From NCBI GenBank assembly GCA_000091205.1, contig AP006498.2: DNA of 64,000 nt. One strand, given 5' to 3'. The position numbers and the translations under genes were made by a program. The notes under the pieces were generated by a model, which saw nothing but the letters and a program-made list of their open reading frames with translations, was not told the origin of the DNA and did not search any database. Each line of letters starts with the position of its first letter. Positions within the stretch are counted from its first letter, which is position 1. Origin of the DNA: Cyanidioschyzon merolae (taxonomy: Eukaryota). Shown piece by piece: positions 9,501 through 41,623 of this stretch.

Positions 9501-11505
9501 GTCTGGTTCTTCTTACAAGAGGTGAGCGTATCGAAGAAGACCTCCGCCTATCTACCTGCCTGTCTGCCAAACAAATATTGACGGAACCCAACCGCTTTCC
9601 AAACCAGGCGTGCCACAAGTCTAACAGTACTCTTCGGGCAAGTTTCCAGGTTTTGGCGCCACATCCTACGCGCTTCCGCAGGGTGCGTTTCATTCAATGC
9701 CGGTACACGGCTGCAGGCTTTCGTCGTACAGGCGGAGCTGCGTTCCCTTACTCCTCCACTTTGGAAACAACCTCTGCGTTATCAGAGAGAAAGGCTTGAA
9801 CTGCTGTGTCCTTGACGTTCATCGCGATGTTCGTTTATTTGCAGAGTTTCAGTTCTGCTCGCATGAGGCCAGTTGCAATATGCAAGGCACAATAGTGTCG
9901 GACTTGTACACTTTGTCGTTAATTATGCAGCACTGCAGGCAGGAACTCTCGCGAGAATAGTTAATGGGAGGGGGGTTGGAACTGTGAAGTGCCTCAACAC
10001 GGCATGTGCCGGTGACTCGGTTTGTCATGTTCTTCAGCAACCAGGTAGGCAGCCTCTGGGAGTCATTTTGTGCCGCTGCAAAAGAACCACCTTGCACCAG
10101 GGAAAACGTTCTTGTTTCCGTGAAACAAAAATAGGCGAATCTTAGGACAAAAGTAAAGATCGGTCTCTGTGATATAAAATCAGCCTCCGAGTTACCTGCG
10201 AGGAATGTGGAACTCGTGGAAAACAGCGGTCCTTTATGAGTGAAAGCCGTTGCATTCCACATGCAACGCTTTTCCGGTAGCGAATTCGGGTCCAGGTACC
10301 TCAATGTACATCATCGACTTGTAATTAATCAGACAGCGCTGTGGCGGCCACGTAGGATGGTAGATGCGTGCGCTCCTGTCCAGGCACGAAACTGTCAGCG
10401 CTCGCCTCTGTCTCCACGCCAGCTCACGGATGGTGCGATACCATGCTACGACTTGCATGAGATTCATGCACTGAAGAAGAGAAGCATGAGACAAGTCAAT
10501 TCGTAGTGGCATGCAGGCACAGACTCGTTCTATCACAAGCCAATGTTCCCTGTGCTGAAGCGTTCTTCAGGAGAATCAAAGTATGCCACCGCGCTACCCT
10601 GAGCGTTTTGGCTCCGTGCCTGTTCTGCCGCCTTCACCAAGCCGGGGCTCGAATCATTTCGATATCCTTCGGATGCTTGCTAGTGCGTTACGGGCATTTC
10701 CAGAGCACCGATGCGAAGCTGACTTCTGCTCCAGTGCCTCGGCATTGAAGTCTGTGCTCGCATGCGTTGACGAAGAATACACGGCGCGTTCGAAACTGAC
10801 GCGCCGTTTCCGGCCAATATCCCAGACGGACAGAGCTCTTCGCGGAGTCATTACTCTGGTGAACGCCACGCAACGCAGCTATCATGCGCCCGAAGACGGG
10901 ATTCGACCGTACCCAAGAGCGCCCCTGCCCAAGTGCGGCACACATCTCGTAAATGGATCCCATGTGATGGCCTCTTGTAGCGAAACTGCTACCGGATACG
11001 TTATCCGAGGCGAAACCTCGGCAAATGCCAAGATACACCGGCGTTTGCGACCAGTTCAACTGTCCCGGAGTGTGACTGCAAATCTTCGTAGAATATAGAG
11101 ATTCCCATCGCAACATATCTTTGTCTGGGCGGAAACGTTTGCAAAGTAGTTCTCCACGGAGCGACTCTTGGTGGGCGTTTCCCGCCACGGAGCGCAAACT
11201 GGCCCCTTGGGTGCGGCTTCCTGATGGCACTGTAGCTGCGCGACATGTGTGTGCGAACGAGTCGTTCCTGGGTACTATGATGTACGGAAACATGACAGTA
11301 ATGATTGCTTTCCCTGCATGGGGCCTCTTCGTGTTGTCGGCTCGCTTTCTGTGGCCCAGGGCTCTGCTAATTTGATGTCTGACGAAAATGGAAATCGTCC
11401 AATAAACTAACTCGGACGTACATGCGAAATTTTTGGATCTTTCCGCAGTCATCAACACCAGCCTTGGCGGATTCTCTGTGACTGCTTCCATTAGATTTCT
11501 CGTAG

Positions 11506-11965
11506 CTACGACTTTAAATACGCCGGTCGATCACCTCCCTCAAGATCTGTCGTCAGAGCTCGACGGATATTGATGCCAGCATTAAAGTCCCGATTTCGCC
11601 GTCTCAGGCTGGTGCCAACGCATGCCATGCCCAGGCAAAAGTTGCGATCTTCGCTTTGTCTGCCATCTCCATTTTCTCTCCAGAGCAGCATCGATACGCC
11701 CTTCGCAGCAGCGACTCTTGGTAATGGTCACGCTTTTCCTGTTTGTCCAATACGCTTCCTCCTCTGAGCGCCGCCCTGTGGCGCGTGAACGCTTGCCCCA
11801 ACGCTCACAGCACATGCACGTGCTGGGTACAGAACCATCCCGCAAGTGCCGTCCTCCATCCACGCGCCCGGTACCGTACCCTGTGATCGACAGCTTATTC
11901 CGGGTAAGTCTGCGGCAGGTGCTCTGCCCGCTGAACACGAAAGCGCACGCCACTCTATTCGACAA
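11506..11965 (-). pseudogene. TnpB/Fanzor-like C-terminal remnant (zinc ribbon plus RuvC-III), frameshifted
   Basis: SVPSTCMCCERWG resembles the TnpB motif pSSkTCsnCG. In a second frame, RNFCLGMACVGTSLRRRNRDFNAGINIRRAL resembles RtFtCpnCG...DRDvNAAiNI. The upstream ITGYGTG sits at the RuvC-II position without the Glu. Confidence 0.5.
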
Positions 11966-12160
11966 AGGATTTGTGGATCGCGATGTTGTTCACGATGAAA
12001 CAAGTTCCGGACGGGAAACCCGCAGCAGCCAGAAGACTGAGGAGCTTCGAACAATCCACGCTACACTGGTGCAACGCGGTGACGCACTCTGCGCTGGGGG
12101 CGAGCGCTGACGTCAGTGCGAGTCCAAGACACTTCTCCGTGCAAGCAGAAGCGCTGGAGC

Positions 12161-12220
12161 CTCCGAGAGCCTCCGAGAGCCTCCGAAAGCCTCCGAGAGC
12201 CTCCGAAAGCCTCCGAGAGC
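12161..12220. repeat. 10-bp tandem repeat (ctccga[g/a]agc) x6 inside R1 copy 1, with only x2 in copy 2 at 19996..20015
   Basis: Direct reading of the sequence. The 40-bp length difference is the only indel between the two near-identical copies. Confidence 0.9.
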
Positions 12221-12664
12221 ATACCCCCAAGAGAGATATCGTGCTGTTGTCGAACCCTATTTCGTGGATGGCCACACAGAGTAGAGAATAACTCCTTCGG
12301 ACGGAATAGATCGTTCGGCGTTCGCAGTCCAGTCCGGAATCGGCACAAGCTCGCGAAGGAGTCCTCAAGGGAAGGCGTCGAGTTTTTTGGTCGCCAGTCC
12401 ATCAGAGCAGATTCCTACGCGCTCGGGTAGCCTCGAAACCAGAGAACTCTAAAAATTGAAGAATGCGTCATTTGAGCATATTACTCGTAAGGAAGGAGTA
12501 TGAGTGGCGTCTTCTGCGTATGAATTGGATGATGGTATCGGTTATTTTACGAACCCTTTTACGGGGACGTCGCGAATGACCGTGACTCTGGGGATGAAAC
12601 GCAGTCCAGCGGGAACGAGTCGAAGGGGTCATTCCGGAAAGACCACCGATGATCCTGGAGTTAT

Positions 12665-14935
12665 ATGAAAATCCCAAACCGATTGCTGCACTTTGCATGC
12701 CGAGGACGTGCAGCTAAAAGAATTTCGGGAGAATTGCAAGGCAGGAAGAGAGCGAAGAGTTCAGTGTTTCATTTGAATCTGGCTCGGCTGTTGTGCACTC
12801 GTCCAGAGGAGGCACCGAAATGCCTCGGAGAACGCTCGCACTGCACTCATCTTAAGGGACTCGTGGCAATGGACTTCAAAGACTTGGTTGCTCTCCGTTG
12901 TGAACTTTCTGTGCAGAGTCTGACAGAAGTTTCGGCTGCACTCCGCCGCGTGATTCTGAGCAAGTCCTACTACGAGTATCAGGTAACTAGAGCGCCCCTG
13001 CGGAGTTTCCTCAACAACGGACCGCTATGGATTTTCCAGACTCTGAGCGGTGCAGGCAGCCTATGGGTATCAAACTTTTACGACACTTGCCGGGATCTCA
13101 TCGCGTCGGGAACGAGACCGGCAACAGGCACTTCCAGTTCTGCGGCGGGCGGCGCGCCAGCGAGGGCCTCACCGACCAGGGCGAGCGATAAAACAGAAAA
13201 GAAAAAGGCTCGGAGGCTGCTGGAGCTATGTCAGGCCGCACAGCCACCGGGGCTTCGCTCTTTGTGTGAACTAGAAAGGGCCCGATGCCAGGCTGCTGTG
13301 CATGCTCTCGGCCGTCTCGAGCGAGCCTTAGCAGTGTATCTTGGAAGGGCCCAGGAGGAGCTTTCTCGTCTACGAAGTTTAGTCGAGAAAGATCCTCAAA
13401 ATAGTTCTGAGTTGCGGGCACTCTTTCTCTCTTGCGACGAATTGCATCACCGTACACTAACAGCGCTGGAAGCAACCGATGTGGATGCTATCGAGGAGGC
13501 TGTTTACGCCCACTTGTTGGTCGATTCTGACGTTCTGGCTGATCTGGATCGCTGGGCTTCTATAATGAAAGAGGATGCAGAACGATTCATTACGCTCCTG
13601 CGCGATGTTCCGCGTAGATGGAACGTCTATTTGACTCTGGAAGAGCTCAGTCGCATCATGCCTGCGGCAGGACGTCAGTCCGGAAAGCGCCGCGGTCTGG
13701 GCTTCATCGAGCGATTGCAAAGGGTTTCGCTCATTTACCCATCGCACTTTGCGAGAAACTGGATACGCTACCTGTGCGGTACCCTGACCATCTTCTGGTC
13801 CTGGACGAAAATCAGCGCACATCGCGAGCATGTGATGCATATCGCACTGAGCGTACGTCAGGTTGTGAGAGGCTTCTGGGACGAGCGCATTATTACCCCG
13901 CTCACCATGATCTACAGGGAAATCTTTCAATCGTCGTATCGAACATTCATGGATCCGAAGGCGGTTCAGGCTGAGAAAGAGACCTTGAAGCGCATGGTTG
14001 TGGATTTTACCCGGGAGGCCTATGCGCGCCTCCCGGACGACCAGCGACAGGAAGCTGAACTTCTGGCTGCAAATGGTGATCTCACACCGGTCATGAAAGT
14101 CTACGAACGCCAGATTCGCAGCCCTGTGGTGAATATGCTTGCTGGTGACGTGATCAGAGCATTACTCATACAAGTCCAGAAACTCAAAGTTGATGTCGAG
14201 CAGGAGATGGTCGCTGTAGACTCCTTGGTTCGTTCGAACGAGCTCAATCTCCAGATCGCTGCTGCCGTTCCAGGCGTTCTTGGATGTTGCCTAGCGGTCG
14301 CGCTCCTGTACCGCTGGTTCAGGCGTTGGTGGTCGAGTATTCGCCTCACTGAAGTAGATCGTTTCGGAGGTGGCGGATATCTCTGGGCCAACGCCTTCGC
14401 CGAGAAGCTTCCCACCCGTGAGCGGGCCCGCCTCTTGCTACGAGATATCGAACGCTATCTGGTGTTGACGCTTTCGCTACGCGGCCCTGAAGCAGCTTCT
14501 GCGAGGCTTCAAGAGACGCCTCTGCTCCAGAAAGCACAAGTGCTCAACGGGAGAGCGCCGGCTTCGTTGGCGTCCGCTTCTCCGGAACGTGTGCAACGAG
14601 TATCAGATCGAACGCTCGCGACGTTCTTCCCTGGCGGTCTCGCTCAGGGTGAAACTGGCGAGAACCTCAAAAGCAGTGAAAATAGTGTGATTTTTCTCTC
14701 GACGGCTTGCATTGCTGAGTACGAAGACAAAGGACGTATTCTTCTCACCCTGGACGAACTGGAGGCCATGGTAACGAGCCGCGCTGGAGAGTTTGGGATC
14801 AGCCGCGGCTCTCAGCTGGAGACTCGCCTACGTGAAGATCTTTTGGACCTGAGATCATTCGCTCTCGACGCTGAACAAAAACTGCTCACAATCCTTCGAA
14901 TGCGCTCTACATATCCCTTTTTATGGGATCGCTAG
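12665..14935 (+). CDS. NCA2-like (nuclear control of ATPase 2 family) membrane protein; the first 39 codons come from the R1 repeat, so the true start may be ATG 12869
   Basis: A 756-aa uninterrupted ORF. VRGFWDERIITPLTMIYREIF and VDSLVRSNELNLQIAAAVPGVLGCCLAVALLYRWF (a TM segment) recall conserved NCA2-domain blocks (gFW.nWv.eP...I..ti; ksNELnF...vaP). This is recalled from memory and not verified. ATG at 12665 lies inside the repeat; the same start in copy 2 gives only the 71-aa ORF 20460..20675. Confidence 0.4.
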   Translation: MKIPNRLLHFACRGRAAKRISGELQGRKRAKSSVFHLNLARLLCTRPEEAPKCLGERSHCTHLKGLVAMDFKDLVALRCELSVQSLTEVSAALRRVILSKSYYEYQVTRAPLRSFLNNGPLWIFQTLSGAGSLWVSNFYDTCRDLIASGTRPATGTSSSAAGGAPARASPTRASDKTEKKKARRLLELCQAAQPPGLRSLCELERARCQAAVHALGRLERALAVYLGRAQEELSRLRSLVEKDPQNSSELRALFLSCDELHHRTLTALEATDVDAIEEAVYAHLLVDSDVLADLDRWASIMKEDAERFITLLRDVPRRWNVYLTLEELSRIMPAAGRQSGKRRGLGFIERLQRVSLIYPSHFARNWIRYLCGTLTIFWSWTKISAHREHVMHIALSVRQVVRGFWDERIITPLTMIYREIFQSSYRTFMDPKAVQAEKETLKRMVVDFTREAYARLPDDQRQEAELLAANGDLTPVMKVYERQIRSPVVNMLAGDVIRALLIQVQKLKVDVEQEMVAVDSLVRSNELNLQIAAAVPGVLGCCLAVALLYRWFRRWWSSIRLTEVDRFGGGGYLWANAFAEKLPTRERARLLLRDIERYLVLTLSLRGPEAASARLQETPLLQKAQVLNGRAPASLASASPERVQRVSDRTLATFFPGGLAQGETGENLKSSENSVIFLSTACIAEYEDKGRILLTLDELEAMVTSRAGEFGISRGSQLETRLREDLLDLRSFALDAEQKLLTILRMRSTYPFLWDR

Positions 14936-16112
14936 CAGCTGTGCTACCGTATTGTTCCCTGCGATCCTGCACGTTATGCGCTCATCCAGTGCCCTGCGAC
15001 CGCTTGCCACTGAGTGCTTCTGTATGTTTTCACTCTGTACCTGCAATTCGTGCGCTCTGCCAAGCCTCTGTTATCGCTCGCCACTGAGTGCTCCTGTACG
15101 TTTTCACTTGGAGCCTGCATCTGATGCGCTCATCTCATCCATAGCGCATTGGTGAAAGACAAAGTCCTTTCTCAGAGGTATTTTTAAAAAGGCTCTTACG
15201 GATGAAAACTGTTCGTATGTGCACCGCAGTGGTGCCCATCGTTTTTTTTTTCGAGTCGGAAAGTGCTCTCGCTCTATCGCCTACCCCACCGGAACTAATA
15301 CTGCATACATCGTTGTCTCCAAAAGAAACGTTCCAGCGCTTGCCACGCAGTCTGTTGTACGTATTTCGTACAAGTGATGCATCGCGTCAACGATGGCACT
15401 CTGCCAGACTGCATTTCGTCGTTTCCAGGGCCTAGCACCCAGGGTCCGTTGAAGTGGGTCGCTGTTCGTCGCATGCAGCACGCAACCGGCATCGAAGAGA
15501 GTCACTGGAAACTACTCGAGGAGCAGTGCCTGCCTCTCGCTGCTAGATCCATTTACAGCTGTCGCAACTTGTTATGGCCATAATGTCCATGGAAACCGAA
15601 AAGCTACGGTAGGCAAGTAATATGTAACTGCATCGAATGCAGTGGTTGCAGCACCTCCATCGTAGCAGCAGTCAAACGATCATGGCGCTGCTCCTTTGGC
15701 GCATAACGCATAACGCGCGGGCGCATAGACTTGCATCTGTGTTGCCATCAATGCTCGTTTATTCCGTCGGGATTTCGAAGCGCCCACGATCGCAGTGGGA
15801 GGAGTACGAAACATGTGAAAGCACCAGATGCCGAATCAATCTCCCGTCCTCGAATTTGCACATGAAACCGTGGGATTCGTGCGTCTCCACAAGCCCTGGC
15901 TAATTTAAGATGCGCTTCTTGAGACATTTTTGATTGTGTGCCGTCTAACGCCAGCGTGGGCAACGTGAACGAGCCTCCAAGCTAGGACGCGACATTTTTG
16001 TCTTCTACACACATGCGAACATACATGGGAAAGGGTCTCGTACCGCTGGCGTACGCTCTAAAGATTGGGTCTCTCCCCATTGTAATCAACATGAGCCTTT
16101 GGGGGCTTCTCA

Positions 16113-17235
16113 GCGATTGTTTCCGCTTCCTCTCTCCTGTCCACGCCATTCGGTACACTAGTCGCTACAGTTCCGTTATCAGCTGTTGGAAGATGTGGAT
16201 GGCAGTGACAAAGACCCGATTTCGCTCCTTCTCGCTGTTGTCGACGAATGCAGTGCAGAGGCGGCAGTTACAACCTGCGCTTCTGTTGCTATTTTCAATT
16301 TTTTTGTTTACAGCCTCGGTTCGCCCTTCGCAGCAGTGGTACTTGACTGCCGTCACGTGTTCTCGTACGTCCATCTCACTTTTACCTCGAGCACCGCCTT
16401 GTGGTGCGTGACGGTTGCTTCATCACTCAGAACATGCCGTGGGCTGGTACGGAGGACTCCCCATAATGTCCTTCTCCGTTTCCGCACCTGGTCCCGTACC
16501 TAACGATTACGGACTCCTTCTGGGCGGTACAAACGGCGAGTGCTCTGTTCCCTGCACATGCGAGCGCATCCTGTTCCATTCGATAGTTGATGTTTAGAAA
16601 GAGACGTTGTCCATAATGAACCGAGTGAAGGAAAAATATTTCAGGCCGGAGATCAAGTCGGGATACTTAGATCCGTCTACGCCCTCGGCATGGGAAACGG
16701 TGACTCACGCTCCACTGGAAGCGATCGCTGGAATGCCTCGATTCCCAGTCCAGGAACTTTTCCATGGAAACAGAAAAGACGGGAATCGCTGGATCCGCAA
16801 TCGGTGAGAGGTTCATGCTGCTGCCGAATCCTGTATTTCGGATAGCCTGAAAGAGAGAAGGATTTACCTTTCGAACAGAGTCGATCATTAAATGTGACAA
16901 GTTAAGCGAAATTTCAGCATGAACTTCTTAACAAGGCCCTGATGGACGTTGTCGAGTTTTTCTCTCGCCAATCTAGCTATGCGAAGGGTTGCGACAACAA
17001 AGTTGCCTTCAAACAGCAATATGGAAAACTTGAGGAACGCATGATTTGAGCATGGAACACCTAGTGACTTGGGAAGATTGGAGGCTTGCGCGTGTGAACT
17101 GGATAATGATATCGTCTATTTTACGACCCGCCGTTCGAAGGCGTTGCGAATCATCTTAATTCGTGTGAAGTTACGAATTCCAGCAGCAAATAGTCGAAGA
17201 CGCCATTCCGAAGACACAACCGAGAATTCTAAAAT
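16113..17235 (-). mobile_element. R1 element copy 3 (diverged, about 1.1 kb), same orientation as copies 1 and 2
   Basis: Plus-to-plus DNA homology to copy 1 over 11441..12650, for example aaagacccgatttcgctcc versus aaagtcccgatttcgccgtc. The end module 16900..17225 aligns with 12340..12650. The minus ORF 16165..16374 carries KYHCCEGRTEAV...CNCRLC...RNRVFVTAIHIFQQL in a single frame, matching the copy-1 pieces RCCEGRIDAA / CLGMAC / RNRDFNAGINIRRAL. It starts with TTTCCGCTT. Confidence 0.6.
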
Positions 17236-17406
17236 CTACATATGAACCAGTAAGTCCTCACAGCTGTACTTTAAAATGTCGATGCTTAACGTCTAAAAAC
17301 AAGTGCGAATAAAAGTCGAAGTGCAGGAACATTGCGAGTAGTCCAGCGTTCCATTTTTAATCTGACGCAGTTGTGGAGGGACAATGAATCCCGGAGCGAC
17401 TTTGCC

Positions 17407-18436
17407 ATGCCAGAGCTGCCAGCAGTTGAGCGGGCTCGTCGTATGATCGATGCCTTATGTAAGAGCTATAGACGGATAAACGTTCAATCCGCACCCGATC
17501 CGAAACATGCCTCTGAGTTTGTGGACAAGCTTTTCGAAGGCAGGCTGGGGCTGGACCTGCTCGAGCGACGTGTCTGCGTAGGTCATGTGCTGCGGCAACT
17601 TGGCCGTCACGGCAAGAACCTGTGGTTTGAGTTCGACGAACCTCCCCACGTTTTCGTCCGCTTTCGAATGGCTGGCTCTTTCGTGGTTCGTGGTCACGAA
17701 GACGGCTACGTTTATGAGACTTTTCGCCGACGTACTGCCGCCTGTCGGTTCCACGACTCAGGAACGCCCCTCGTCTCAGTCTGGCCACCGAAGCATACAC
17801 ACATTGTTTTTAGTTTTGCTCCCTGCTCCCCAGGAGTAGATTCTGCCAGTATAAACGGTATCTCTGTCCGAGAGTTCGCGCTGGTCGACCCGCGAAAGGT
17901 TACGAGGATGCGCCTCAGCGACTCGTCGTGTCCTTCTGTCGAGATTCGAAGCCTCATAGGAGGCTTCGATGCGCTGCATGCGCTCCCTCCTATTGAGCGC
18001 TTCGAAAGGAAAATGTTAGTGTACCCGAAAGCGAATATCAAATCGTTGCTTTTGGGCCAGCGCTTCATCGCTGGGCTCGACAATTGGATGGTCGACGAAG
18101 TTCTTTATTACGCTCATATTCACCCGGAGAGTCGCACTTGTGACCTCACTCGTATCGATGTTGCAGCATTGCATCAGAGCATCGCATAAGTTGTGCGAAG
18201 CTCGTGTGATGCAAACGCAGACTTGGCCCTTTTCCCCTAAGACTGGCTCTTTCATATCCGGTGGCAAGGAGCAGCGAAAAGGAGACGCGGCCGCGACATG
18301 CATCAAGTCGTTATTACAGCAGACGGGAAAAGCAAATTTCATTCATGCTAGCGGACGTACAGCGGTATATGTACCCTCTCTGCAAAGAAAACGTGGCCAT
18401 GCCCGAAAGGTTTGCCACACAGACGCCGGCGCATAA
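17407..18436 (+). CDS. FPG: Fpg/Nei-family (formamidopyrimidine-DNA glycosylase, H2TH) base-excision repair enzyme, plant/fungal zincless-finger type; needs a short intron (about 18160..18220) or a +1 frameshift
   Basis: The N-terminus is MPELPAVERARRM (canonical Fpg MPELPEVE with catalytic Pro2; ATG at 17407). The H2TH block is DNWMVDEVLYYAHIHPE. ORF 1 stops at 18189, but the +1 frame (18221 onward) encodes TWPFSPKTG...ASGRTAVYVPSLQ, matching the Fpg C-terminal beta-hairpin (gGRsTffCPqCQ) with the Cys residues replaced. A candidate 61-nt intron is GTTGCA...AAACGCAG at 18160..18220; the exon phases fit. Confidence 0.75.
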
Positions 18437-18516
18437 CAGTTGAAAACGTTAAAGTGTCTTCTCTTGCTGACTCGGACGAGCTTGCGTATTTCAAGTGAAG
18501 GACTTTTCACGCTTTG

Positions 18517-19191
18517 ATGCCTCGCATAAAGCACGCTTCAACGAGCGACGGAAGGAGCAAGACGGTGACAACGCATGGCAAAGGAGGCTCTTCCACAGTG
18601 CGCTCGAGCAGAGCCTCCGCACGCGCCGGCACTGATGCACCTCGAAGCCTGGCCCGCACTGGGGGCGCGCAAGACCACAACTTGCGGCGTTGCAGCAGCG
18701 AATCAACAGAGGCTCTCTCTGATTCGGACACGAGCTGGAAGCGAAGCGACGCAGAGAGCGCGGACGAGACCAGTGGGGAGCACGACCGGTCAGCCACGCG
18801 GAAGCGTAAGCAAACCCAAGTTAGCGGAAGCGCAGTGAACGGCAAGAGAGCTGTTCGCGGAAATGGCGTAAGAGAGCTTGAACAGCCCACTGCAGCTGCC
18901 GCAACCGTGAAAACAGAGGCAGCTTCTCTGAAAAAAAAGCCCGCTGACAGTGCGAAAAAGTTGAAAGCATCGGAGGTCACCTTCGTTTTCGATGAACTTC
19001 GCAATGATCAACGTTTTATTACACCTCGCCAGCTCATGAGGGCAATCATGTGTCAAATGGGGCAACAAGAGGCTGAACAAATGACTGACAGCGACATCAC
19101 AGCGATGATTAGACTAGCCGACACCAACGGAGACAACAGAATCGACAGAGAGGAGTTTGAGAATTTTGTACAGAGAGAAATCCGTCTCTGA
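18517..19191 (+). CDS. small basic protein with a C-terminal EF-hand
   Basis: The C-terminus has an EF-hand loop DTNGDNRIDREEFENFV. The N-terminal half is basic and Ser/Ala-rich. ATG at 18517 (the ORF track starts at TTG 18514). Confidence 0.45.
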   Translation: MPRIKHASTSDGRSKTVTTHGKGGSSTVRSSRASARAGTDAPRSLARTGGAQDHNLRRCSSESTEALSDSDTSWKRSDAESADETSGEHDRSATRKRKQTQVSGSAVNGKRAVRGNGVRELEQPTAAAATVKTEAASLKKKPADSAKKLKASEVTFVFDELRNDQRFITPRQLMRAIMCQMGQQEAEQMTDSDITAMIRLADTNGDNRIDREEFENFVQREIRL

Positions 19192-19273
19192 ATATACCAC
19201 TAAACCTATGCTCCATAAGTATGAAACGAGTCCTATCTGGACAATTCTGGTTTGCATATTCAAGTTTCTGTCC

Positions 19274-20583
19274 CTTTCCGCAGTCATCAACACCAGCCTT
19301 GGCGGATTCTCTGTGACTGCTTCCATTAGATTTCTCGTAGCTACGACTTTAAATACGCCGGTCGATCACCTCCCTCAAGATCTGTCGTCAGAGCTCGACG
19401 GATATTGATGCCAGCATTAAAGTCCCGATTTCGCCGTCTCAGGCTGGTGCCAACGCATGCCATGCCCAGGCAAAAGTTGCGATCTTCGCTTTGTCTGCCA
19501 TCTCCATTTTCTCTCCAGAGCAGCATCGATACGCCCTTCGCAGCAGCGACTCTTGGTAATGGTCACGCTTTTCCTGTTTGTCCAATACGCTTCCTCCTCT
19601 GAGCGCCGCCCTGTGGCGCGTGAACGCTTGCCCCAACGCTCACAGCACATGCACGTGCTGGGTACAGAACCATCCCGCAAGTGCCGTCCTCCATCCACGC
19701 GCCCGGTACCGTACCCTGTGATCGACAGCTTATTCCGGGTAAGTCTGCGGCAGGTGCTCTGCCCGCTGAACACGAAAGCGCACGCCACTCTATTCGACAA
19801 AGGATTTGTGGATCGCGATGTTGTTCACGATGAAACAAGTTCCGGACGGGAAACCCGCAGCAGCCAGAAGACTGAGGAGCTTCGAACAATCCACGCTACA
19901 CTGGTGCAACGCGGTGACGCACTCTGCGCTGGGGGCGAGCGCTGACGTCAGTGCGAGTCCAAAACACTTCTCCGTGCAAGCAGAAGCGCTGGAGCCTCCG
20001 AGAGCCTCCGAGAGCATACCCCCAAGAGAGATATCGTGCTGTTGTCGAACCCTATTTCGTGGATGGCCACACAGAGTAGAGAATAACTCCTTCGGACGGA
20101 ATAGATCGTTCGGCGTTCGCAGTCCAGTCCGGAATCGGCACAAGCTCGCGAAGGAGTCCTCAAGGGAAGGCGTCGAGTTTTTTGGTCGCCAGTCCATCAG
20201 AGCAGATTCCTGCGCGCTCGGGTAGCCTCGAAACCAGAGAACTCTAAAAATTGAAGAATGCGTCATTTGAGCATATTACTCGTAAGGAAGGAGTATGAGT
20301 GGCGTCTTCTGCGTATGAATTGGATGATGGTATCGGTTATTTTACGAACCCTTTTACGGGGACGTCGCGAATGACCGTGACTCCGGGGATGAAACGCAGT
20401 CCAGCGGGAACGAGTCGAAGGGGTCATTCCGGAAAGACCACCGATGATCCTGGAGTTATATGAAAATCCCAAACCGATTGCTGCACTTTGCATGCCGAGG
20501 ACGTGCAGCTAAAAGAATTTCGGGAGAATTGCAAGGCAGGAAGAGAGCGAAGAGTTCAGTGTTTCGTTTCAGTCTGAAGGTTG
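19274..20583 (-). mobile_element. R1 element copy 2, near-identical to copy 1
   Basis: The six-frame ORFs are identical to those of copy 1 (for example the 61-aa MLLWRENGDGRQSEDRNFCLGMACVGTSLRRRNRDFNAGINIRRAL... and the 162-aa ORF). The only differences are the VNTR count and roughly 3 SNPs. It diverges from copy 1 immediately after ...agttcagtgtttc. Confidence 0.75.
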
Positions 20584-20804
20584 TAAAGTGCGATTGGTCA
20601 ACGATACTTGCACTGCCCATCAAGAGAGTTTTACGGATCATCGTTTCCCCACCGCTGCCAAAAATTTGCAACTAAGCATTGCGAGCTGGATCATGTTCTA
20701 CATCGTGTAAAATCGATCCGCACTTGTCCAACAGAGGCATTCGTCCGTGCCCCTGAACGAAAGCCTCGCCTGGAATTCTCAACGTGAAGGTTCTCCCGTC
20801 CGTG

Positions 20805-21650
20805 TTAAAACACGTTTGGAATGAAAGCCTTCACTCGCGCGGCATACTCTTCATACTCTTTGCCGAAGCGCTCAATAAGATATTTCTCCTCTTCAGTTGC
20901 TTTGCGAGTGAAGAAGTAAAACAGCGCTAACGTTAAAACTAAACGTTCCGGAGAATGCGAAACCGTTGAAAATCCAAAACTGGTCAGAACTATCCCAGTA
21001 TAGATCGGATGCCGCATGAGGCCGTACAAGCCGTCAGTTTTCAGAGCGGCGCTCGCCGGCGGCTTCACCCAAGGCACAAAATTCTCAGGACCGAGCTCTC
21101 GGATAGCCTGCACGACAACGTATATGCCCAGGAAAAGAGGCACAGGCCCCATAAGGAAACCGAAGACGGGATCAAGTGCTCCTGGATCGCGCAAAATCAG
21201 TAGTATGAGAGCAAGTTGTATAACAACGTAAGTCTCACCGCGATTGAACCATTCGCCGGCCACCGTGTTGTCTAAGACTCTTTTCCAGTATGCAGCTGAA
21301 TCACGAGAAAACTTTTCCACGTCGAAATTAGCTATTTTCTTCGAAATTGCTTCGGGTATTTTCTCGATGCTTTCCAATACCTTTTGCAGTTTCTCTCCCA
21401 GTTCAACAGTTACAGACTCGTTTGCTGGAGTCGCATCTACAATTTCAGGTGCGCTTTTACTCGCTTTAGGCGCTTCGTCGACCTTCCGCATCAGCAGCGT
21501 TGCTCGCTGTGCACGCGAACTTGGAGTACAAGCCAAACCAGTCCTCCCGGAGTGCCGGCGGCTCGTTGATCGCCCCCACAGTGGCGAGAGCGTTTCACGA
21601 CACAGTGCCGCTGGCACAAAGGCAAGCTCATCTCCCGCAAGAAAAGTCAT
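20805..21650 (-). CDS. phospholipid / isoprenylcysteine-carboxyl methyltransferase-family (PEMT/ICMT-like) membrane methyltransferase
   Basis: The C-terminus GLYGLMRHPIYTGIVLTSFGFSTVSHSPERLVLTLALFYFFTRKATEEEKYLIERFGKEYEEYAARV matches the PEMT/ICMT SAM-binding region (RHP.Y.G......G ... EE..L...FG..Y..Y). The ORF-track start at 21830 is TTG. Candidate ATGs are 21800 and 21650 (MTFLAGDELAFVPAAL, transit-peptide-like), so the start is uncertain. Confidence 0.6.
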   Translation of the reverse strand: MTFLAGDELAFVPAALCRETLSPLWGRSTSRRHSGRTGLACTPSSRAQRATLLMRKVDEAPKASKSAPEIVDATPANESVTVELGEKLQKVLESIEKIPEAISKKIANFDVEKFSRDSAAYWKRVLDNTVAGEWFNRGETYVVIQLALILLILRDPGALDPVFGFLMGPVPLFLGIYVVVQAIRELGPENFVPWVKPPASAALKTDGLYGLMRHPIYTGIVLTSFGFSTVSHSPERLVLTLALFYFFTRKATEEEKYLIERFGKEYEEYAARVKAFIPNVF

Positions 21651-21761
21651 TTGTGGCTGTACTCTGCGTCGCGAACGTTCTCTCTCGGGCTCTTTGTACA
21701 GGCGTGACACCCGCACGTTCTGTCGACGCCGCAAATACGCGCCATACATTGTCATACACTT

Positions 21762-21910
21762 CATGCGATCGACATGGACAAGGCGTCCGTGGCACTCCAT
21801 TGGTGCAGGTATGTCTGTAAATGTACACAACTAGCGATACGCATCATGCGAGCGACACGGACAGGGCGCCCGTGGCAGCACATTGGTGTATAAATGTCTA
21901 ATAAGGTACA
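21762..21910. repeat. imperfect tandem duplication of about 70 bp, upstream of the methyltransferase gene
   Basis: catgcgatcgacatggacaaggcgtccgtggcactccattggtgcaggtatgtctgtaaatgtacac is followed by catgcgagcgacacggacagggcgcccgtggcagcacattggtgtataaatgtctaataaggtacac. Confidence 0.8.
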
Positions 21911-29307: not shown

Positions 29308-29949
29308 ATTGGGCCTGCTCAAGGCGTCTCAGAGCCAAGACGGCTGAGGCTGCTCCGCAGCGTGCGAGGAAAGCGTTCGTTGCAGTTGCACAGCCTTCAT
29401 GCGGCGACCGTCCAGCGACCGCCACCTCGAGATCTTCATCCGCGCGCAGTGCGTCCGACGCGAGCCTGGAGCAGCCGGACCTGTGGCGAAGTCCGACGAC
29501 GCTTGGCATAGCTGCACTTCCTGTCGTTCAACGCAATGCTGTTCCGTACCCGCTGCGTATCATTGAATGCTTATTCGATGTTTATAGCAAGAGATCGAGA
29601 TCGTTATGCAATGCACCCTACATACCGCAGACGGGTTGCCTGTATGGTACACTCTGTACTGAGGAGTGTACCGGGAACTGCATGCCTCCTTCAGGTCAGT
29701 CATACCGCATTACTTTGATGGCAGAGGAACGCTGAAAGAAATAACTAGATCTGCTCCGCGCCGAAAACTGGTATTGCCAAAGTATGTTTGCGGTCAATGG
29801 TACAAAAACAACCCGTTGATCTCTTGAGGGAAAGCAAAAGCTGTGATAGGAGCTGCTAGGACTGTCTCTGTTACTCAGTAGCTTGTTCGCTTGATCCTGA
29901 AAACACTGGGACACAGTCGCAAGAAAAGGCAATCTAATTCAGCACCATC

Positions 29950-30545
29950 TTGCACGGAAATCGCAACGAAAGCGTTCCTAGAACGTTGCGATCGGTATGA
30001 AGCTGAGCAACGCCCGTGTATTTCAGTCGATGTGGCTTGCTTCGGATGAAACGGTCGGAGCGTACATAAGTATTTGCTGGGCGGGAGCCCGGCGTATGTA
30101 CGATCCAACACGAAGAGAATGACGACATTATCATCTGTTCTAGGTACAGTGTATGCATATGGCGGCCTCAGTTTCGCTTATAAAGAAGGCTCATACATCA
30201 GGACCCTTTTCGTCGAATTATTCAAGATTTTCCTCCTCACGTCTGGCGGCGTCATTTTGTTGGACAACGTGGCGTTTCACCATTCCCCTTGCGTTCGAGC
30301 TTTTGCAGATGCGGTTGGGGTAGAACTGCTTTTCACTCCTTCGTACGCTCCTTGGTTAATCCCAGTCCAGGAGTGTTTTCTATCATGAAACGTAATGAGC
30401 GCTCCACTGGGCGTACTGATGAAGCGTTCAGCACACGGTGACACCAGGGCACATTTCGTCTTTCCTCCGCAAGTCCCTGTCTCTCCGGGAGGGTTTTCCC
30501 CTAAGGGCATAAAAAGGTGCGTTTATTTGAAGGAATAAAAAAATC
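29950..30545 (+). mobile_element. Tc1/mariner (IS630-superfamily) transposase relic B, 5'-truncated
   Basis: ORF 30074..30388 encodes ...GGVILLDNVAFHHSPCVRAFADAVGVELLFTPSYAPWLIPVQECF, which carries the second D and the E of the DD(34)E motif (DN..H ... Y.P.LNP.E). It is homologous to relics at 34550..35350 and 45840..46790, and the 3' tail is homologous to the low end of relic C. Confidence 0.7.
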
Positions 30546-30989
30546 CGAGGGAAAATTAAGGACATGAAAGTCGGGGATCCTGGCGAGCCGTCATCGCCAG
30601 CTGCCGGAAAACAACGAAAAACTCCTCCGCCCGCCCACCATCGAGCGAAGAAGGACAAGTGACAAAGAAGAAAACAGAAGTTTAGCTAGAAATGGTGTTT
30701 CCTCCAACAGAACAATGAATAGGCTGTTGTAGCATATACAGCATGAGTTCTGGGAGTCCTTCCAAAGGTGAATTCTATCAGAGGCAATAAACGCATGGAG
30801 TACGTGAAGCGAGACTTTACGCTGCTACCAACATCATACGCTATGTGGTGCTGTATACGAGACTACAGGAGCTTAGGCGATATGAGTTTGTAAGGCAGCC
30901 TCTCAGGGACTTGGTGCAAAGAGAAAAACTGAAGCCAATGGCAGGAGGGCGGCCAAAAAGGCTGCGAGGCGTCTTCGGGTGGGTGTCAA

Positions 30990-31650
30990 TTTGCCAAGGA
31001 TAGCAAGAACAGAAACTAAACACTTACTAGCTGCCCGATAACGATTTCTTCCCGCCTCTACAGTAAGCGTTGAAAGGGAGGGAAGGGTTCCGTATATTCG
31101 AAAGTTTACCTTCTAGGCGGAAGATCCCCCGACCCGGACGAGTCTGCCGGGCTTACGCTCCGTTTGAATCTGCAGTGACGAAAGCTGTGATGAAGTTTGA
31201 GCAGCTCGTCCGAAATGCAAGTTATCCTGGGACTCGGAGCTGATATGCTGCCTCTGGATGTCGCCCTGGTCGCAGTGGACTCCTAGTATATCGCTTCGCG
31301 TTGCCGCAGGCAGTATGTCTGTCTGTACAGTTTCCAGGCTCCCAGAATGATAATGAATCCCAACCTGTGTCGGATGAACCACGCCTCGGTCCGACGCCTC
31401 AGCAGTATGGCAAAGCCGCTCTATCTCCGTTCTGCATCGGCATCAGCGGTATGGGCGCTTTCGCTGGAGCCCAGAGCAGGTACTCGGCACGCGACAGAAT
31501 GTATGAAGCGACCAGTGTGTCCAAGAAGAAGTATCGGTTATGGAACTTGGAGTTAAGGTGCCGCGTGATGGACGCTTTCCCGAAAGCCAAGACCCATCCG
31601 GCAATCTGGAATCCATAGTCTATGTAAATATTCTGTCAAAGAAAAAAGAT
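30990..31650 (+). repeat. R2 dispersed repeat copy 1 (about 650 bp, no recognisable coding capacity)
   Basis: Homologous to 33880..34575 in the same orientation, for example gcgttgaaagggagggaagggttccgtatattcgaaagttt versus gcgttgaaagggaaaagtgtttcccttattttagaaagttt. Both ends match: ...gatggacgctttcc... and aaagaacagaaacta. Confidence 0.7.
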
Positions 31651-31811
31651 CGACGCGATCGCTGCCTCTGTTGGATGCTGCCGCCCTCGATGTTTCCCAT
31701 CGATTCCAAACCTACTAAACACCCGCGACGACTCGCCCGTCGTGCAGTTCTGTGCAGCTCTGCAACCGCTTGGCCGCATTGCACGAAATAGTCTCGGGTT
31801 GCACTCGTGCC

Positions 31812-33879: not shown

Positions 33880-34575
33880 CAACCTACGAGCTACAATTGC
33901 GCTAAAAGAACAGAAACTATCCAATAACCAGCAACTCTATAACAATTTCGTTTCATCTTCACGGCACGCGTTGAAAGGGAAAAGTGTTTCCCTTATTTTA
34001 GAAAGTTTGTCTTCAAGCCGGAAGGTCCCGCGAGACGGACGAGTGTTCCGGGCTTGCACTCCGTGCGCCTCTACAGTGGCGGTCGCAGTGCCGAGACCTG
34101 AACGGCTCATCTGGAATGCGTTTTATTCTGGGAATAAGGGTGGCAAGGGTGTATCCAGGTATCGCCCTGGTGGAAGTGGTCTCCTAGCACAGCTCTTTCG
34201 CGCTGCCGCATGCAGTAGGTCTGTCTGCGCAGATTGCATGCTCCAAAATGATTCTATGATCCGATTCCGTATCGGGTGCACCACGCCTTGGGCCGACGCC
34301 CTCTGTGCCATGACAAAGCCGTTTTGTCTCCGTGCTGTATCCGTACCATCCATGTAGGCGTTATTGTGGGTGCTCACGGCAGGCTCGGCGCGCGGTAGAA
34401 CGCACGTAACGACCAGTACACCCGAGAGGAAATATGGGTGATGAAACTTGAAGGTGGAGCGCAGCATGATGGACGCTTTCCACAATGCCACAACTCATCC
34501 CGCAATTTAGTGACCATGGCCATCTAAAACGATTTCTCAAACAAAAAGGTTCGCATAATGGAGCGATCATTACGT
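33880..34575 (+). repeat. R2 dispersed repeat copy 2
   Basis: See copy 1. It lies about 200 bp upstream of the RPL10A start codon and abuts the truncated 3' tail of Tc1-like relic A. Confidence 0.7.
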
Positions 34576-35350
34576 TACACTATGAAAAACACTCGTTCTT
34601 TGGGGTTCAGCTATGGGCATTACGGAGGAATGAAAAGTAGCTCTACCCCCGATAGAATCCGCAAAAGCTCGAACGCAACGGAAATCGTGAAATGCCAGGT
34701 TGTCCAGTAGAAGCACATCAGCAGATGTGAGGGAAAAGTCTCCAATGATTGGATCATGTGGGTGCTATTTCATGAGCCTTCTCTGCGAGAGAATCCGAGG
34801 CCGCCAAATATATCCACTGCAGCTAGAACAGATGATGAAATCTTTCTCTTGGAGTTCGATCTTATATACAACTGGCGCCTTCTATGCGAATACCCATATA
34901 CAATCCGACCGTTTCGTCCGAACGGAGTCTTACCGACTAAGTAAACGGACCGACGTGCCTGTGCTTCCCAGCGATCGAGACGTCCCAGTAACTCTGTCGT
35001 TGCGATATCGGTGGAAGATGGTGGTGCATGAAACTCAACTTTTTTGCGACTGTATCCCTGTGTATTCAGGACCACACGAACAAGCTGCTGAGTACCAGAC
35101 ACGCCCGTGGTCGCTACCATCGTACGGTTTGATTTCTCTAAAGTGATCAACATATCGTTTTCTACCATTGACCGCAAGCACGCTTCGAGAATATCGGTTA
35201 CTGGCTCGGAGCGCATACACGTTTTTCTTTCAGTTTTCCTCAAACATTTGCGCACTGTGGTATGGCTTACTTGAAGGGGCAAGGCAGTCCTCCTTGCACT
35301 CTTCAACAGAGCATATATCCTATAGGTAATTCGCCTACGATCTAAATGTT
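34550..35350 (-). mobile_element. Tc1/mariner (IS630-superfamily) transposase relic A, degenerate
   Basis: The minus ORF 34770..35306 has an HTH (LQVSHTTVRKCLRK) followed by SVYLVGKTPFGRN (first D of the DDE motif mutated to G) and YIRSNSKRKISSSVLAAVDIFGGLGF. A further reading below 34770 gives ...VLLLDNLAFH.... It is homologous to relics B and C, and the 5' flank 35150..35350 matches 46600..46790. Confidence 0.7.
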
Positions 35351-35607
35351 ACATTCATTAGAGATTTCTGTCTCCTTCTCCACCCCGCAACGATGGTGAA
35401 CCAAAATTGAGTTGAAAGATTACAAGCGACGGCCGTTCCGTGGCCGCAGCTGCTGTGTCCGAATTTACCAAGATCGAGAGCCGTTACGCTTCTGTGCCTG
35501 GCCCTGAGCTCAAACAGCTACGTTTACGTACATACGTTGCAGTGGGTTATGTGAGCACAACTTTAGGCGTCTTACTTTTTCTCACTAGCGCACCAGGATT
35601 TTTCCTA

Positions 35608-37769: not shown

Positions 37770-38279
37770 CGTCCAGCGAGCGACGTGCTCGGCTCAAAAG
37801 CCTGTCGTTCGCAGAGATCCATCGGGGTGGGCGTCTGCTAGGACAGCGCTCGCGCATCTGCGGACGCTACGACTTGCGGCAAATTGAATTGCGGAGTGCT
37901 GGATCATCGGCGCCACGCGACCCGACGCCGCAGTGGTGTAACAAGCCGCTAAGCATACCGATAGCTATCGTGCAAATGAGGATAGCTGGATCTTGAAGAA
38001 ATTCCGAAACACTCAAAATACGGAATCGCTACGGCACGCATGCGCATCAATGTGAGAATAAAATGGAACGGATCCTCTACTTCGGACGAACACACTAAAG
38101 TTTCTAACCTCCTGATGCCACCAACACCAGCTTTTTCGGGTTTTTTTCTGCGTTTGCTACTCTTTCCTCTTTTTTGTACCAGGTTATAAATCCGCTGATC
38201 ACTCCTTTCCGTCCAGCTATTTGTCAGCAGTTGGCAGTCGTCGATGGCAGCGTTAGGATCCTGAGTTCGCTGCTTGTAG

Positions 38280-38760
38280 CTTTCGTCAACTCATTTCGAG
38301 CACAGGCGGCAGATGCGATCTTCGTTTCGCTCGCCATTTTCGTCTTCTGTGTATACAGCCACGATGTACCTTTGGTAGCACAGAAACTGCACCGCGGTCA
38401 ATTGTCCTCATATTAAAAACATCTCTTTTTCCGAGGGCCGCACTGTACAGCGTAAAAGCTTGCTTCATTTCTTGGTACACACTTTTCACGGGTTCAGAAG
38501 GTTCTTCTCGATGCCATCCGCCGTTTCCGCACCCGGTGCCGTATGCTATGATCACGAACTTCTCGCGCGCGATGCGCTCAGCGAGTAGCCTGTCCGCTGC
38601 ACGCGCATATAGACGCTTCCCGTTGGAGAACTCGCCATACCTTTCCTTGCACCCACTTCGTTTTCTGCAAACTCTACAACCCAACGTAACGTTGAGCGTT
38701 GCGGGCATCGATGTGCCTTGGCCACTTGCAGGCATCGTGTCCACACGTTCCACTCACACA
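38280..38760 (-). mobile_element. R1/F-family fragment (copy 5), same orientation as the others
   Basis: DNA such as ccatccgccgtttccgcacccggtgccgtatgctatgatcacgaactt matches ccatccacgcgcccggtaccgtaccctgtgatcgacagctt in copy 1. The minus ORF 38286..38753 carries KFVIIAYGTGCGNGGWH, compared with copy 1 ITGYGTGRVDGG and the long element KILVVAHGAARW. Confidence 0.5.
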
Positions 38761-39548
38761 AGCTGATGCGGGTAAGGCTTCTGAGCCTCCCTACTGCTTC
38801 CGTCGCTCGACGTACCGTTCTCTTACCTGCCCGGTTTCGTTGAGACGAAGACAATTGGTGCGCGAATTGGACGCCCAGCTGTAAGTGCAAATTAGGCGAT
38901 TCGAAATTCTTGTCTTCAAAGCGTTGTCGGTTGTCAAAGTAGGATTTACTCGAATTCGGTGCTGACAGAAACGCTGGTGTGGAGATGTGCACTCCATGAG
39001 GTCAAGCCTGTGCAGATCGCATTGGGGAGTAAATTCGCAGCGCTATACTTCTGTACGGCTTGTTTCCCCTCGGCTATGTCCTCTTCTAACTAGTGGTGCA
39101 TTTGAGTTCTGACGGGTCATGGAGCGCGTGGGACGTTCGCTATCGATGGCAATGGATACAATCACGCGATCGGTCTCGATAGAGCACCGTGTCTCCTCGA
39201 TATACCGCCAGACTCCTGTTCCTCATTTTTTCGTTCTCTTTCGCACCTTGCTTTATCTGACAGAGCTTTTCCTTTCTCAAACGGTTCAAGATTGCCTGAG
39301 AAGCTCCAGAAAAAGGCTCCAAATATTGCTTCATAAACTCCAGGTCGTCGATCAGCACCTCTTCTACGCCGCACCTTCCGTTCTCCATCGGACGCATCCG
39401 CACCCTGTCTGCGTTGGCAAGCCTCTTCACAATAAAGCAAGAAAGGCGCAAAGCGAGGCGATACTACCAGCGAACCAGAGATGTGTTCGGAAAAGATGGA
39501 GGCCTCTGCCATCAGGAGTTCTGGAAAACCACTCCATCTACAGAAGCA

Positions 39549-40619
39549 TCATTGCTTTCTTGGACGGTTACTTGCAGGTTGCAGGTCTATCTTCTTCTTG
39601 GTGTCTTCGTCTTTCTCGGATATTCCGTAGAGTTGCATCACGCTTTCCATATCTTCCGAGCCAATGGGCTTCAGCACAGCTCCCGTTGTGAAGAATGCGT
39701 CCATGCCGCCCAGGCCAATGACCGTGTCGCCGCTCTCTCTCCTCCCCGTAATCGGGACCTTCATGTGCCCATCGGGTTGAATTCTTAATTTTTTCAAGTT
39801 CGACGTACGTACTTTTCTGTCTACATACTTCTTTGTTTTATCCAGGCCATTATGAGTCACCATGCGAGTGAGGATCTCGACATCCGCAAACCCGTTCAAC
39901 TTGGAAGCCGATGTGCGTGTGGCGTCGATGGAAGCATTGAGCGCATGAGGTGTTTCCGGTATGCGCTCCGGCAGAGTGAGGACATGCAAGGCCGTAAGTG
40001 TCAGCAACGCCTCTAAGAAGTACCCGACTTTTACAAGAATCCCGCCGCACATGATGTTTGCGGTTACGATGGTGAGGTAAGCGCATCGCTGGAGCATGGT
40101 GCGAAAAAAAACATATTCCTGGACGCCAGCTGTCTGTTCCGGCGACAGCAACTACGTTCCGAGGTATCCCTTTATGATCATAGTGTCGCAGAGCAGCGAT
40201 GAGAACAGCTCCTCGTCCCAGAGAACGCCGAAGCAGTAATCTTCCTGTAGGAACGCGTTTCGTATGGTGCTGCCACATTCTCTGCGAGCGACAAACAGCT
40301 CTCTTCGAAACCAGCTGGGATCTTTTGGCGAGTCTTTCACAGTTGTTTCCCTGGCATACCTGGTTTGTACGGGCTGCGTGCCTCCATTAATAAACAGGTC
40401 ATTAATCCGTATCCTTAATGCATTATTTTCCGTTTTTGGTATGCCTCTTCTAGAATCCACGATTAGAGAACGTCGGCGACTTCTTGCAAAACCTGCGCAG
40501 GCGAGTGCGGCAGCCGCAGTCGCTATGCCATGAGCGTCGAGCACTTGTTCGTTTCGGGGACGATCTTTATGATGGAAACTTGCATTTGATTCCATGAAAC
40601 AGCTTTTCAAGGTCCCCAA
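39549..40619 (-). pseudogene. two-TM membrane protein gene interrupted by a single in-frame TAG (356 codons in all), either a pseudogene or a readthrough/sequencing issue
   Basis: ORFs 40152..40619 and 39549..40151 are in the same frame and directly contiguous, separated only by TAG (plus strand cta at 40152..40154). The hydrophobic stretch YLTIVTANIMCGGILVKVGYFLEALLTLTALHVLTL forms the TM segments. Family not recognised. Confidence 0.4.
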
Positions 40620-40649
40620 ACGACATATTCGTGTTTAACCATGGGGAAT

Positions 40650-41340
40650 AAGTTGTAATGTATACGATGATAAATGCTTTGTTCACTGGCGTCTACCAAA
40701 GAGAAGAGGGTTGGTGGAACGTGATGTTGTCCGTGATGAAACAAGTACCGGGAGGAAAATACAACCAGGAGAATAAGTCGACCAATCTGGATTCGTCAAC
40801 GCACTCTTCATGTCCAGCGGTGGCGCAATCTCTACCGAAAATGATCGCCACTATAGCTTAAGTCCGATCCCAAGTCAACTGTCCATGCAAACAGAAGAGA
40901 TGGGAGCCTCCCGGAGTAAATATTTTGAGCGGCATCATCATGCAGAGGAGTGGTGTTGCATCGATGGAAGCGAAGAAGGGATCATTTTTATCAGAGCGAA
41001 ACCCATTATTTGGCGTGACAAGTTCAGTGTGCTTTCGGCATGAGCTTGTGAAGGAGTCTTCAAGCGACGGCGTCGCGTTTTTCTCGTCGCCATTCCAGCG
41101 GCGCGAATCGCTGCGCTCTCGAGTTGCCATCAAAGAAAAAACCAACAGCTTGAAGAACGCTTGATTTGAGCAAGCAACTCGTAAGGAGAGAAGCAGCGTG
41201 GTAGCTGGACCGTATGAACTGGGTGCTGATATGGATTAGTATACAAACCCTCTTTCCAGTCTGTGGCGATTCATCTTGATTCCAGTGGCTTGAGGAATTC
41301 CAGCGTCAACGCCTCAAAGGAGCCAGTTCGAAGCGACGAT
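40650..41340 (-). mobile_element. R1-family fragment (copy 4), containing the conserved end module
   Basis: gaacgtgatgttgtccgtgatgaaacaagtaccgggagg matches gatcgcgatgttgttcacgatgaaacaagttccggacgg in copy 1. Peptide echoes are MLSVMKQVPGGK versus MLFTMKQVPDGK, and KNATPSLEDSFTSSCRKHTELVTPNN versus KNSTPSLEDSFASLCRFRTGLRTPND. The module 41150..41340 aligns with 12460..12650. It lies in the divergent promoter region between the 39549..40619 gene and the DHQS-like gene. Confidence 0.6.
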
Positions 41341-41623
41341 CGATTAGCCAAAATCTACGTGCAAAACCTTTAGCGGTAAATACGGCACTTAAATGCCTTG
41401 GCTGCACAGCTAAAAAAGTTCAGAAAAAATCGAAAGGCAGAACTTAGCGATTAGTTCATCTTTACCTGCCGCGGCGGCTAGATCCGGGATGGTACGCTCG
41501 GTAAGATCTTGCTGCAGATTCCAAACTAGGTAGTGGTCAGCACAGCGTTTCAACGTGCTCGACGAACAGACGAATCTGCAAAAAAACCCTGACGTCGTAC
41601 GCATAGGGCCGAGGTGTTGGTCT

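Follow-up and report, generated by a model that had tools for sequence, protein, structure and literature searches.

A near-identical pair of old interspersed repeats around three ancestral genes in Cyanidioschyzon merolae, probably homogenised by ectopic gene conversion

Cyanidioschyzon merolae is a model alga valued because its genome is minimal and nearly free of repeats and because its genes can be targeted by homologous recombination. On the 908-kb chromosome 16 of strain 10D, in the 64-kb stretch of DNA that we analysed (the window), two copies of a sequence that we call R1, c1 and c2, stand 7.8 kb apart in the same orientation and are nearly identical, with three host genes and a third, diverged R1 copy between them. 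How this pair came to be so alike is the question raised by the locus. A sequence-only reading had seen in it the configuration of a composite transposon, in which two IS605/Fanzor-type elements bracket cargo genes, and had offered two routes to the near identity: a recent transposition or duplication of such an element, or gene conversion between the copies. We find that the repeat pair itself is real and well supported, and that the 11439-20583 block is not a mobile composite element; the evidence speaks for the second of the two routes and against the first, and we consider it probable that the near identity of c1 and c2 is due to ectopic (non-allelic) gene conversion between old, decayed, non-coding family members.

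The c1/c2 tract, its flanks and its relatives in other strains

The near-identical tract and the variable-number tandem repeat (VNTR) within it lie at the following positions:

11439-12783, + strand: c1 tract
19274-20578, + strand: c2 tract
12157-12220, + strand: 10-bp VNTR GAGCCTCCGA in c1, 6.4 units (TRF)
19992-20015, + strand: 10-bp VNTR GAGCCTCCGA in c2, 2.4 units (TRF)

Self-BLAST of the window (the self-comparison that had been proposed as a check), a repeat finder and MAFFT showed the two tracts to be direct repeats on the same strand, with the ends of the match reported as 12781 or 12783 in c1 and 20576 or 20578 in c2. Inside the tract the copies are distinguished by three substitutions, at 12128 (G/A), 12417 (A/G) and 12589 (T/C), and by one 40-bp indel, which is a change in the copy number of the 10-bp VNTR unit. 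Leaving the VNTR aside, 3 of 1270 sites differ (99.76% identity); the ~99.8% identity in the same orientation, and the difference of 6 versus 2 VNTR units, had thus been read correctly from the sequence. The 5' boundary of identity is sharp, while at the 3' edge identity tails off gradually with no abrupt stop, three more mismatches (12771, 12775 and 12777) falling within the last 13 bases before similarity collapses. The VNTR is polymorphic between strains, with a range of 2 to 6 units: strain 10D has 6.4 units at c1 and 2.4 at c2, three metagenome assemblies have 4 at each, and another has 3 at each. The old R1 copies described below carry a single unit-like sequence at this position.

Outside the tract we found older homology. 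According to the hidden Markov model (HMM) of the R1 family, the c2 unit reaches back to 19215, 59 bp beyond the identity boundary at 19274 on its 5' side, and in the columns covering 19215-19273 c1 and c2 are identical at 29 of 57 positions (~51%), as is the case for any other pair of copies. The 5' flank of c2 resembles that of another R1 copy, c5 (p=0.002; permutation test p=0.005-0.02), and on the 3' side of the tract there are ~22 nt at ~64% identity. The near-identity tract is accordingly bounded on both sides by homology of lower identity, with support that is modest because the flanks are short.

For a comparison between strains we used hot-spring metagenome assemblies of related strains (L001-L006), which are 99-99.6% identical to 10D and in all of which R1 is present at both the c1 and the c2 site. 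Within the tract the 10D paralogues differ at 3 of 1270 sites, as against 6-9 of 1270 for orthologues between strains. At each of the eight strain-variable sites both copies of an assembly have the same state, and none of these sites separates the sequences according to locus. Both 10D copies carry private alleles at alignment columns 468 and 631, the alternative base being found in 10 of 10 other sequences; this pattern is independent of the way in which the metagenomes were assembled, and these are the only alleles robust to a collapse of repeats. Paralogues that are closer than orthologues and lineage-specific alleles shared by both copies were therefore both observed, with the caveat that repeats may have collapsed in the metagenome assemblies. 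A tract nested in ~50% identical older homology, together with 10D-private alleles in both copies, points to ectopic gene conversion that has been ongoing after strain divergence. As to young copies elsewhere, contigs of four hot-spring metagenomes contained a 44-mer taken from the 5' end of young R1, as an exact match, at no loci other than those of c1 and c2, giving no sign of an active, spreading element, and the metagenome contigs held no extra copy of young R1 or of the block, all matches lying at this locus.

An old repeat family in an ancestral gene neighbourhood

Searches with nhmmer and the family HMM identified five R1 copies in the window, with a unit of ~1.4 kb and the same ends, all on the + strand:

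1081-2504, + strand: copy A, 58.4% identical to c1, between an RNase III/dsRBD gene and a VTT-domain gene
11361-12807, + strand: full family unit of c1, family HMM positions 2-1409
15993-17398, + strand: copy c3, 59.6% identical to c1, between the NCA2 and Fpg genes, ending 9 bp before the Fpg ATG
19215-20587, + strand: full family unit of c2, family HMM positions 26-1396
38028-38617 and 40705-41491, + strand: copy c5, old and interrupted by 2087 bp of unique DNA

The full-length copies A and c5 are additions to what had been recognised from the letters alone, and the diverged third copy, which had been placed at 16113..17235 with 60-70% identity, is real and diverged (~60%) and is longer than had been thought. 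Pairwise identities of the old copies were 57-61% in each comparison, a star-like pattern as would be expected of one old burst followed by decay. All five copies lie on the + strand whatever the orientation of neighbouring genes, a bias which alone is not significant (1/16).

The coding content of R1 is poor. Its longest stop-free stretch is 174 codons, a Pfam search of all six frames returned nothing at E<=1, including no TnpB, Fanzor, Y1 or transposase signal in any frame, and Rfam and tRNA scans of the window were empty. We detected no codon-position periodicity in the substitutions between R1 copies, which fits neutral decay and leaves room for an ancestral open reading frame (ORF). A six-frame, X-joined protein query of R1 gave no matches, the joined query probably being the limiting factor, since a single 162-residue + strand ORF used in an exhaustive HMMER protein search gave 31 clusters, i.e., its own and 30 other cluster representatives. 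These 30 relatives (E-values of 1e-11 to 1e-3, 32-61% identity to the query) are diverged and none is encoded in the window, which indicates that the R1 family is dispersed and rich in old members. They have in common the motif ...RRVLCPLH.QAHAV.FDRGF.ERDVVHDETS.GR.IQAGEQVE.FRSVYA..., and a few retain ORFs of 250-292 codons; the surviving ORFs suggest remnants of a decayed ancestral ORF. In the R1 DNA consensus both strands are open for ~200 codons, with no single coding strand singled out. Neither the relatives nor the consensus of these relatives matched anything in profile searches of Pfam, PHROGs or PDB, no exact match to the 162-residue ORF was present in protein records, and the AlphaFold model from the set of relatives and their consensus had no confident fold (pLDDT, the predicted local distance difference test score, of 51.5).

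In the published description of the finished genome there is a novel interspersed repetitive element with 253 copies, a mean length of 3.2 kb and a share of ~5% of the genome, which has a truncated ORF with weak BLASTX similarity to WSV486 of white spot syndrome virus (WSSV) (Nozaki et al. 2007, PMC1955436). R1 is like that element in being C. merolae-specific, dispersed and mostly intergenic, and in having decayed ORF remnants, no recognisable transposase and many old copies; it is unlike it in its unit of 1.4 kb rather than 3.2 kb, and in that five copies in 64 kb are denser than expected for a family of 253 copies in 16.5 Mb. Based on this comparison of descriptions, it is likely but unproven that R1 is the 253-copy element. 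On the repeat classification of R1 and the annotation of the locus (CMP167-173) the literature gave nothing usable beyond Nozaki 2007 and Mikulski 2017. Most likely, R1 is an old, decayed, lineage-specific interspersed family that formerly spread into intergenic spacers.

The genes around which this argument turns are the following:

12869-14935, + strand: NCA2-like gene (PF08637, E=2.5e-51), with an ORF open from 12665 and a conserved part from ~12860
17407-18189, + strand: Fpg/Nei-type DNA glycosylase gene (PF01149, PF06831)
18517-19191, + strand: EF-hand protein gene CMP171C (Pfam EF-hand families; identical to the strain 10D protein BAM81802.1 / XP_005537838.1)
20805-21830, - strand: PEMT/ICMT-family methyltransferase gene (PF04191, PF04140), convergent with the EF-hand gene and forming the right edge of the c2 spacer

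Pfam families confirm that the pair brackets NCA2-like, Fpg and EF-hand genes, as had been reported. The idea that these genes are the cargo of a composite transposon did not survive a comparison with three outgroups, namely the genome of Cyanidiococcus yangmingshanensis (L007), a related metagenome contig (L014) and Cyanidium caldarium (L015). The zf-Nse, NCA2, Fpg, EF-hand, PEMT and L31e genes are adjacent in Cyanidiococcus and in the metagenome relative; Cyanidium is partly rearranged, with NCA2, zf-Nse, Fpg/EF-hand and PEMT still neighbours. Neither the R1 DNA HMM nor the R1 ORF profile found anything in the loci of these outgroups. The NCA2, Fpg and EF-hand genes are ancestral residents, not cargo.

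The spacers tell the same story in numbers. Between the convergent EF-hand and PEMT genes there are 214-235 bp in all three outgroups as against 1593 bp in C. merolae, and the excess over Cyanidiococcus in the R1-bearing spacers is +1303 bp (A), +1148 bp (c3), +1379 bp (c2) and +2233 bp (c1). As the spacers are longer by about one R1 unit, the R1 copies are discrete insertions, made in the C. merolae lineage, into an ancestral neighbourhood; the zf-Nse/NCA2 spacer, which holds c1, has ~790 bp extra relative to Cyanidiococcus even after R1 is subtracted. For c2, a start at 19215 leaves a non-R1 spacer remainder of ~240 bp, matching the outgroups, whereas an insert of only the identical 1305 bp would leave ~308 bp, above the outgroup range.

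Gene conversion and its competitors

We infer gene conversion, its direction and a role for efficient homologous recombination from these patterns, and a possible course of events is as follows. The R1 family would have spread into intergenic spacers and then decayed, leaving c1 and c2 in two spacers on either side of three ancestral genes. One copy would then have been repaired with the other as template, the older copy probably being overwritten between the best-conserved terminal blocks, and repeated conversion, easy once the two were nearly identical, would have kept c1 and c2 alike and continued after strain divergence, while strand slippage would have altered the 10-bp VNTR independently of conversion. 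Ectopic gene conversion and concerted evolution between dispersed repeats are known, e.g., from yeast Ty/delta elements and from low-copy repeats in animals. The R1 pair resembles such systems in that older, diverged homology surrounds the near-identity tract, paralogues are closer than orthologues, strain-specific alleles occur in both copies and the host has efficient homologous recombination; it differs in that only two of the five nearby R1 members are homogenised, c3 between them being untouched, and in that the other members are ~58% identical, which makes the start of the first conversion hard to account for. In C. merolae, the integration of DNA by homologous recombination is described as efficient (PMC3764038). 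In this reading the locus would offer two dispersed C. merolae repeats, 7.8 kb apart, that are kept identical by recombination.

Several points weigh against gene conversion. Conversion between ~58% identical partners is mechanistically difficult and the first homogenising event is unexplained; initiation may have needed only the conserved terminal blocks (5' TCATCAACA.CAGCCTT, 3' GCGA..AGTTCAGTGTT), or c2 may have been more similar to c1 from the start. The metagenome copies are identical including VNTR number, possibly as an artefact of graph collapse, and one contig ends exactly at 11439. The search that found no further young copies left out the complete 10D genome at the DNA level. The case for an old R1 in the c2 5' flank rests on ~57 alignment columns, and a leave-one-out HMM of the upstream 80 nt missed c2, recovering the other four copies weakly; both this HMM and stringent local alignment of the upstream flanks were underpowered, and softer scoring and permutation gave p=0.002-0.02.

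The closest competitor is a recent copy-and-paste event, in which duplication or transposition would have brought the c1 segment 11439-12783 into the EF-hand/PEMT spacer not long before the sampled strains split, no older R1 having been there. The sharp 5' identity boundary and a tract that spans nearly the whole family unit are what such an event would leave, the leave-one-out HMM saw no family homology upstream of c2, and the 1379-bp spacer excess roughly fits a 1305-bp insert. Against this, the 59 bp just before c2 do show homology of the family type in pairwise and permutation tests, and the residual spacer of ~308 bp exceeds the 214-235 bp of the three outgroups. We saw neither a target-site duplication nor a poly(A) tail or terminal repeats, R1 showed no coding capacity, an active relative did not come to light, and the metagenome contigs held no other young copy; moreover, duplication alone leaves the 10D-private alleles in both copies unexplained. 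We therefore think this event unlikely. A local duplication of recent date, kept up by conversion ever since, is a reasonable alternative, to which we give a similarly small share of the probability. More speculative, and in our view improbable, is that R1 is a mobile element of an unclassified kind, restricted to the C. merolae lineage, with an ancestral ORF (remnants of <=292 codons) from outside the known transposase, reverse transcriptase and viral families, and that c1 and c2 are the trace of a copying mechanism which still operates without terminal repeats or target-site duplications.

The remaining explanations, all of which we judge to be far less likely than these, treat the two copies as the ends of one unit or as an error. 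That two IS605/Fanzor-type elements mobilise the cargo genes as a unit, i.e., a composite transposon, was suggested by two same-orientation, near-identical ~1.3-kb repeats around 6.5 kb and by an element size within the range of tnpB-only IS605-family elements, and bacterial composite transposons of the Tn5/Tn10/Tn9 type likewise have near-identical ~1.3-kb repeats that bracket unrelated genes. The R1 pair departs from them in lacking a transposase, a target-site duplication around the block and a second location (the block was seen at one locus only in the metagenome contigs), in its eukaryotic host, and in enclosing ancestral genes that have the same neighbours in three R1-free outgroups. 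With IS200/IS605 tnpB and Fanzor elements R1 shares its size and the absence of terminal inverted repeats and target-site duplications; it is unlike them in that Pfam, PDB profile searches and structure prediction gave no TnpB/Fanzor (RuvC and zinc-finger) ORF or remnant, that Y1 and other Pfam domains are absent also from the longer family members and the consensus, and that subterminal hairpins are lacking. At the R1 5' end there are no inverted repeats of at least 8 nt, on the 3' side there is only an 11-nt palindrome 150 nt from the end, and folding of the ends is no better than that of shuffled sequence (z = -0.67 and +0.15). We looked for target-site duplications at 11439/12783 and 19274/20583, as had been proposed, and found none, and none surrounds the 11439-20583 block, whose flanks (...TTTTTGGAT / R1 and R1 / AAGGTTGT...) have nothing in common. 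R1 as an IS605/Fanzor element was accordingly rejected, each testable defining feature having failed, and the composite transposon, for which the transposase, the cargo and the target-site duplication are all wanting, is extremely unlikely; a false lead is thereby removed, there being no evidence here of either a Fanzor element or a composite transposon of the bacterial type. Near-identical direct repeats around a ~6.5-kb interior, with other copies single, would also be the picture of an LTR (long terminal repeat) retrotransposon-like element, c1 and c2 being its LTRs and the other R1 copies solo LTRs. The interior, however, consists of ancestral host genes (NCA2, Fpg and EF-hand) and R1 c3 with no gag or pol, the R1 ends read CTTTCC... 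and ...TCTG rather than TG...CA, target-site duplications are absent, and the analysis of the finished C. merolae genome turned up no LTR retrotransposons (Nozaki et al. 2007, PMC1955436), making this explanation scarcely credible. An assembly artefact, with one repeat placed twice or a consensus copied between the sites, had been a concern from the outset: 1.3-kb repeats at 99.8% are hard to assemble, the metagenome copies are perfectly identical and one contig breaks at the repeat edge. For this record the concern can be set aside as having only a negligible chance of being right, because the two copies differ by three single-nucleotide differences and four VNTR units and have unique flanks each, several independent assemblies (99-99.6% identical) put R1 at both sites, the outgroup spacer arithmetic demands ~1.4 kb extra at both, and the finished 10D genome was closed clone by clone (PMC1955436).

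Ectopic gene conversion is the explanation that we prefer. The pair is also a substrate for unequal recombination, a sound inference of the sequence-only reading: pop-out between the 1.3-kb direct repeats could remove NCA2, Fpg and CMP171C, a point relevant to engineering near this locus or to the assembly of related strains.

Neighbouring genes and other features of the window

Several host genes have R1 sequence directly in front of them. The 3' ends of c1, c3 and c5 lie 9-62 bp upstream of the same-strand start codons of NCA2 (12807-12869), Fpg (17398-17407) and DHQS (41491-41534), respectively, and the promoters and 5' untranslated regions (UTRs) of these genes must therefore fall inside R1. 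Related to the idea of an unclassified mobile element is the possibility, for which we would likewise claim little probability, that R1 3' ends were co-opted as promoters/5' UTRs of NCA2, Fpg and DHQS. The c2 end, which is identical, runs towards the convergent PEMT gene and into its 3' end.

The Fpg gene (region 17407-18330) is truncated by in-frame TAA codons at 18187 and 18238, and tblastn with a 342-residue outgroup Fpg passes both stops with 51% identity over 309 residues. The first stop (18187) is CAA in metagenome strain L001 and TAA in the others. From the sequence, this may be either a recently decaying pseudogene or a gene dependent on stop-codon readthrough.

The 2087 bp within c5 (38618-40704) contain a minus-strand reading frame of 355 codons that has a single internal stop. 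This insert has no similarity elsewhere in the window and no Pfam match, its only homologue is itself in other Cyanidioschyzon assemblies, and it has no clear target-site duplication or terminal inverted repeat; as it has neither a Pfam match nor a homologue except itself, we rejected it as the coding part of a 'full-length' R1.

At the 5' end of c1 a 267-codon ORF begins on the - strand (10688-11491), which is a gene call in all metagenome assemblies and has no Pfam match. Directly after the NCA2 stop codon there is a 74-bp unit repeated 2.1 times (14955-15134), and short direct repeats occur as a 77-bp pair (53449-53607) and a 56-bp pair (2536-2673). A second old repeat family (~70% identical), unrelated to R1, is present at 29562-31652, 33906-35380 and 45768-46827, where its copies are intergenic and both direct and inverted.

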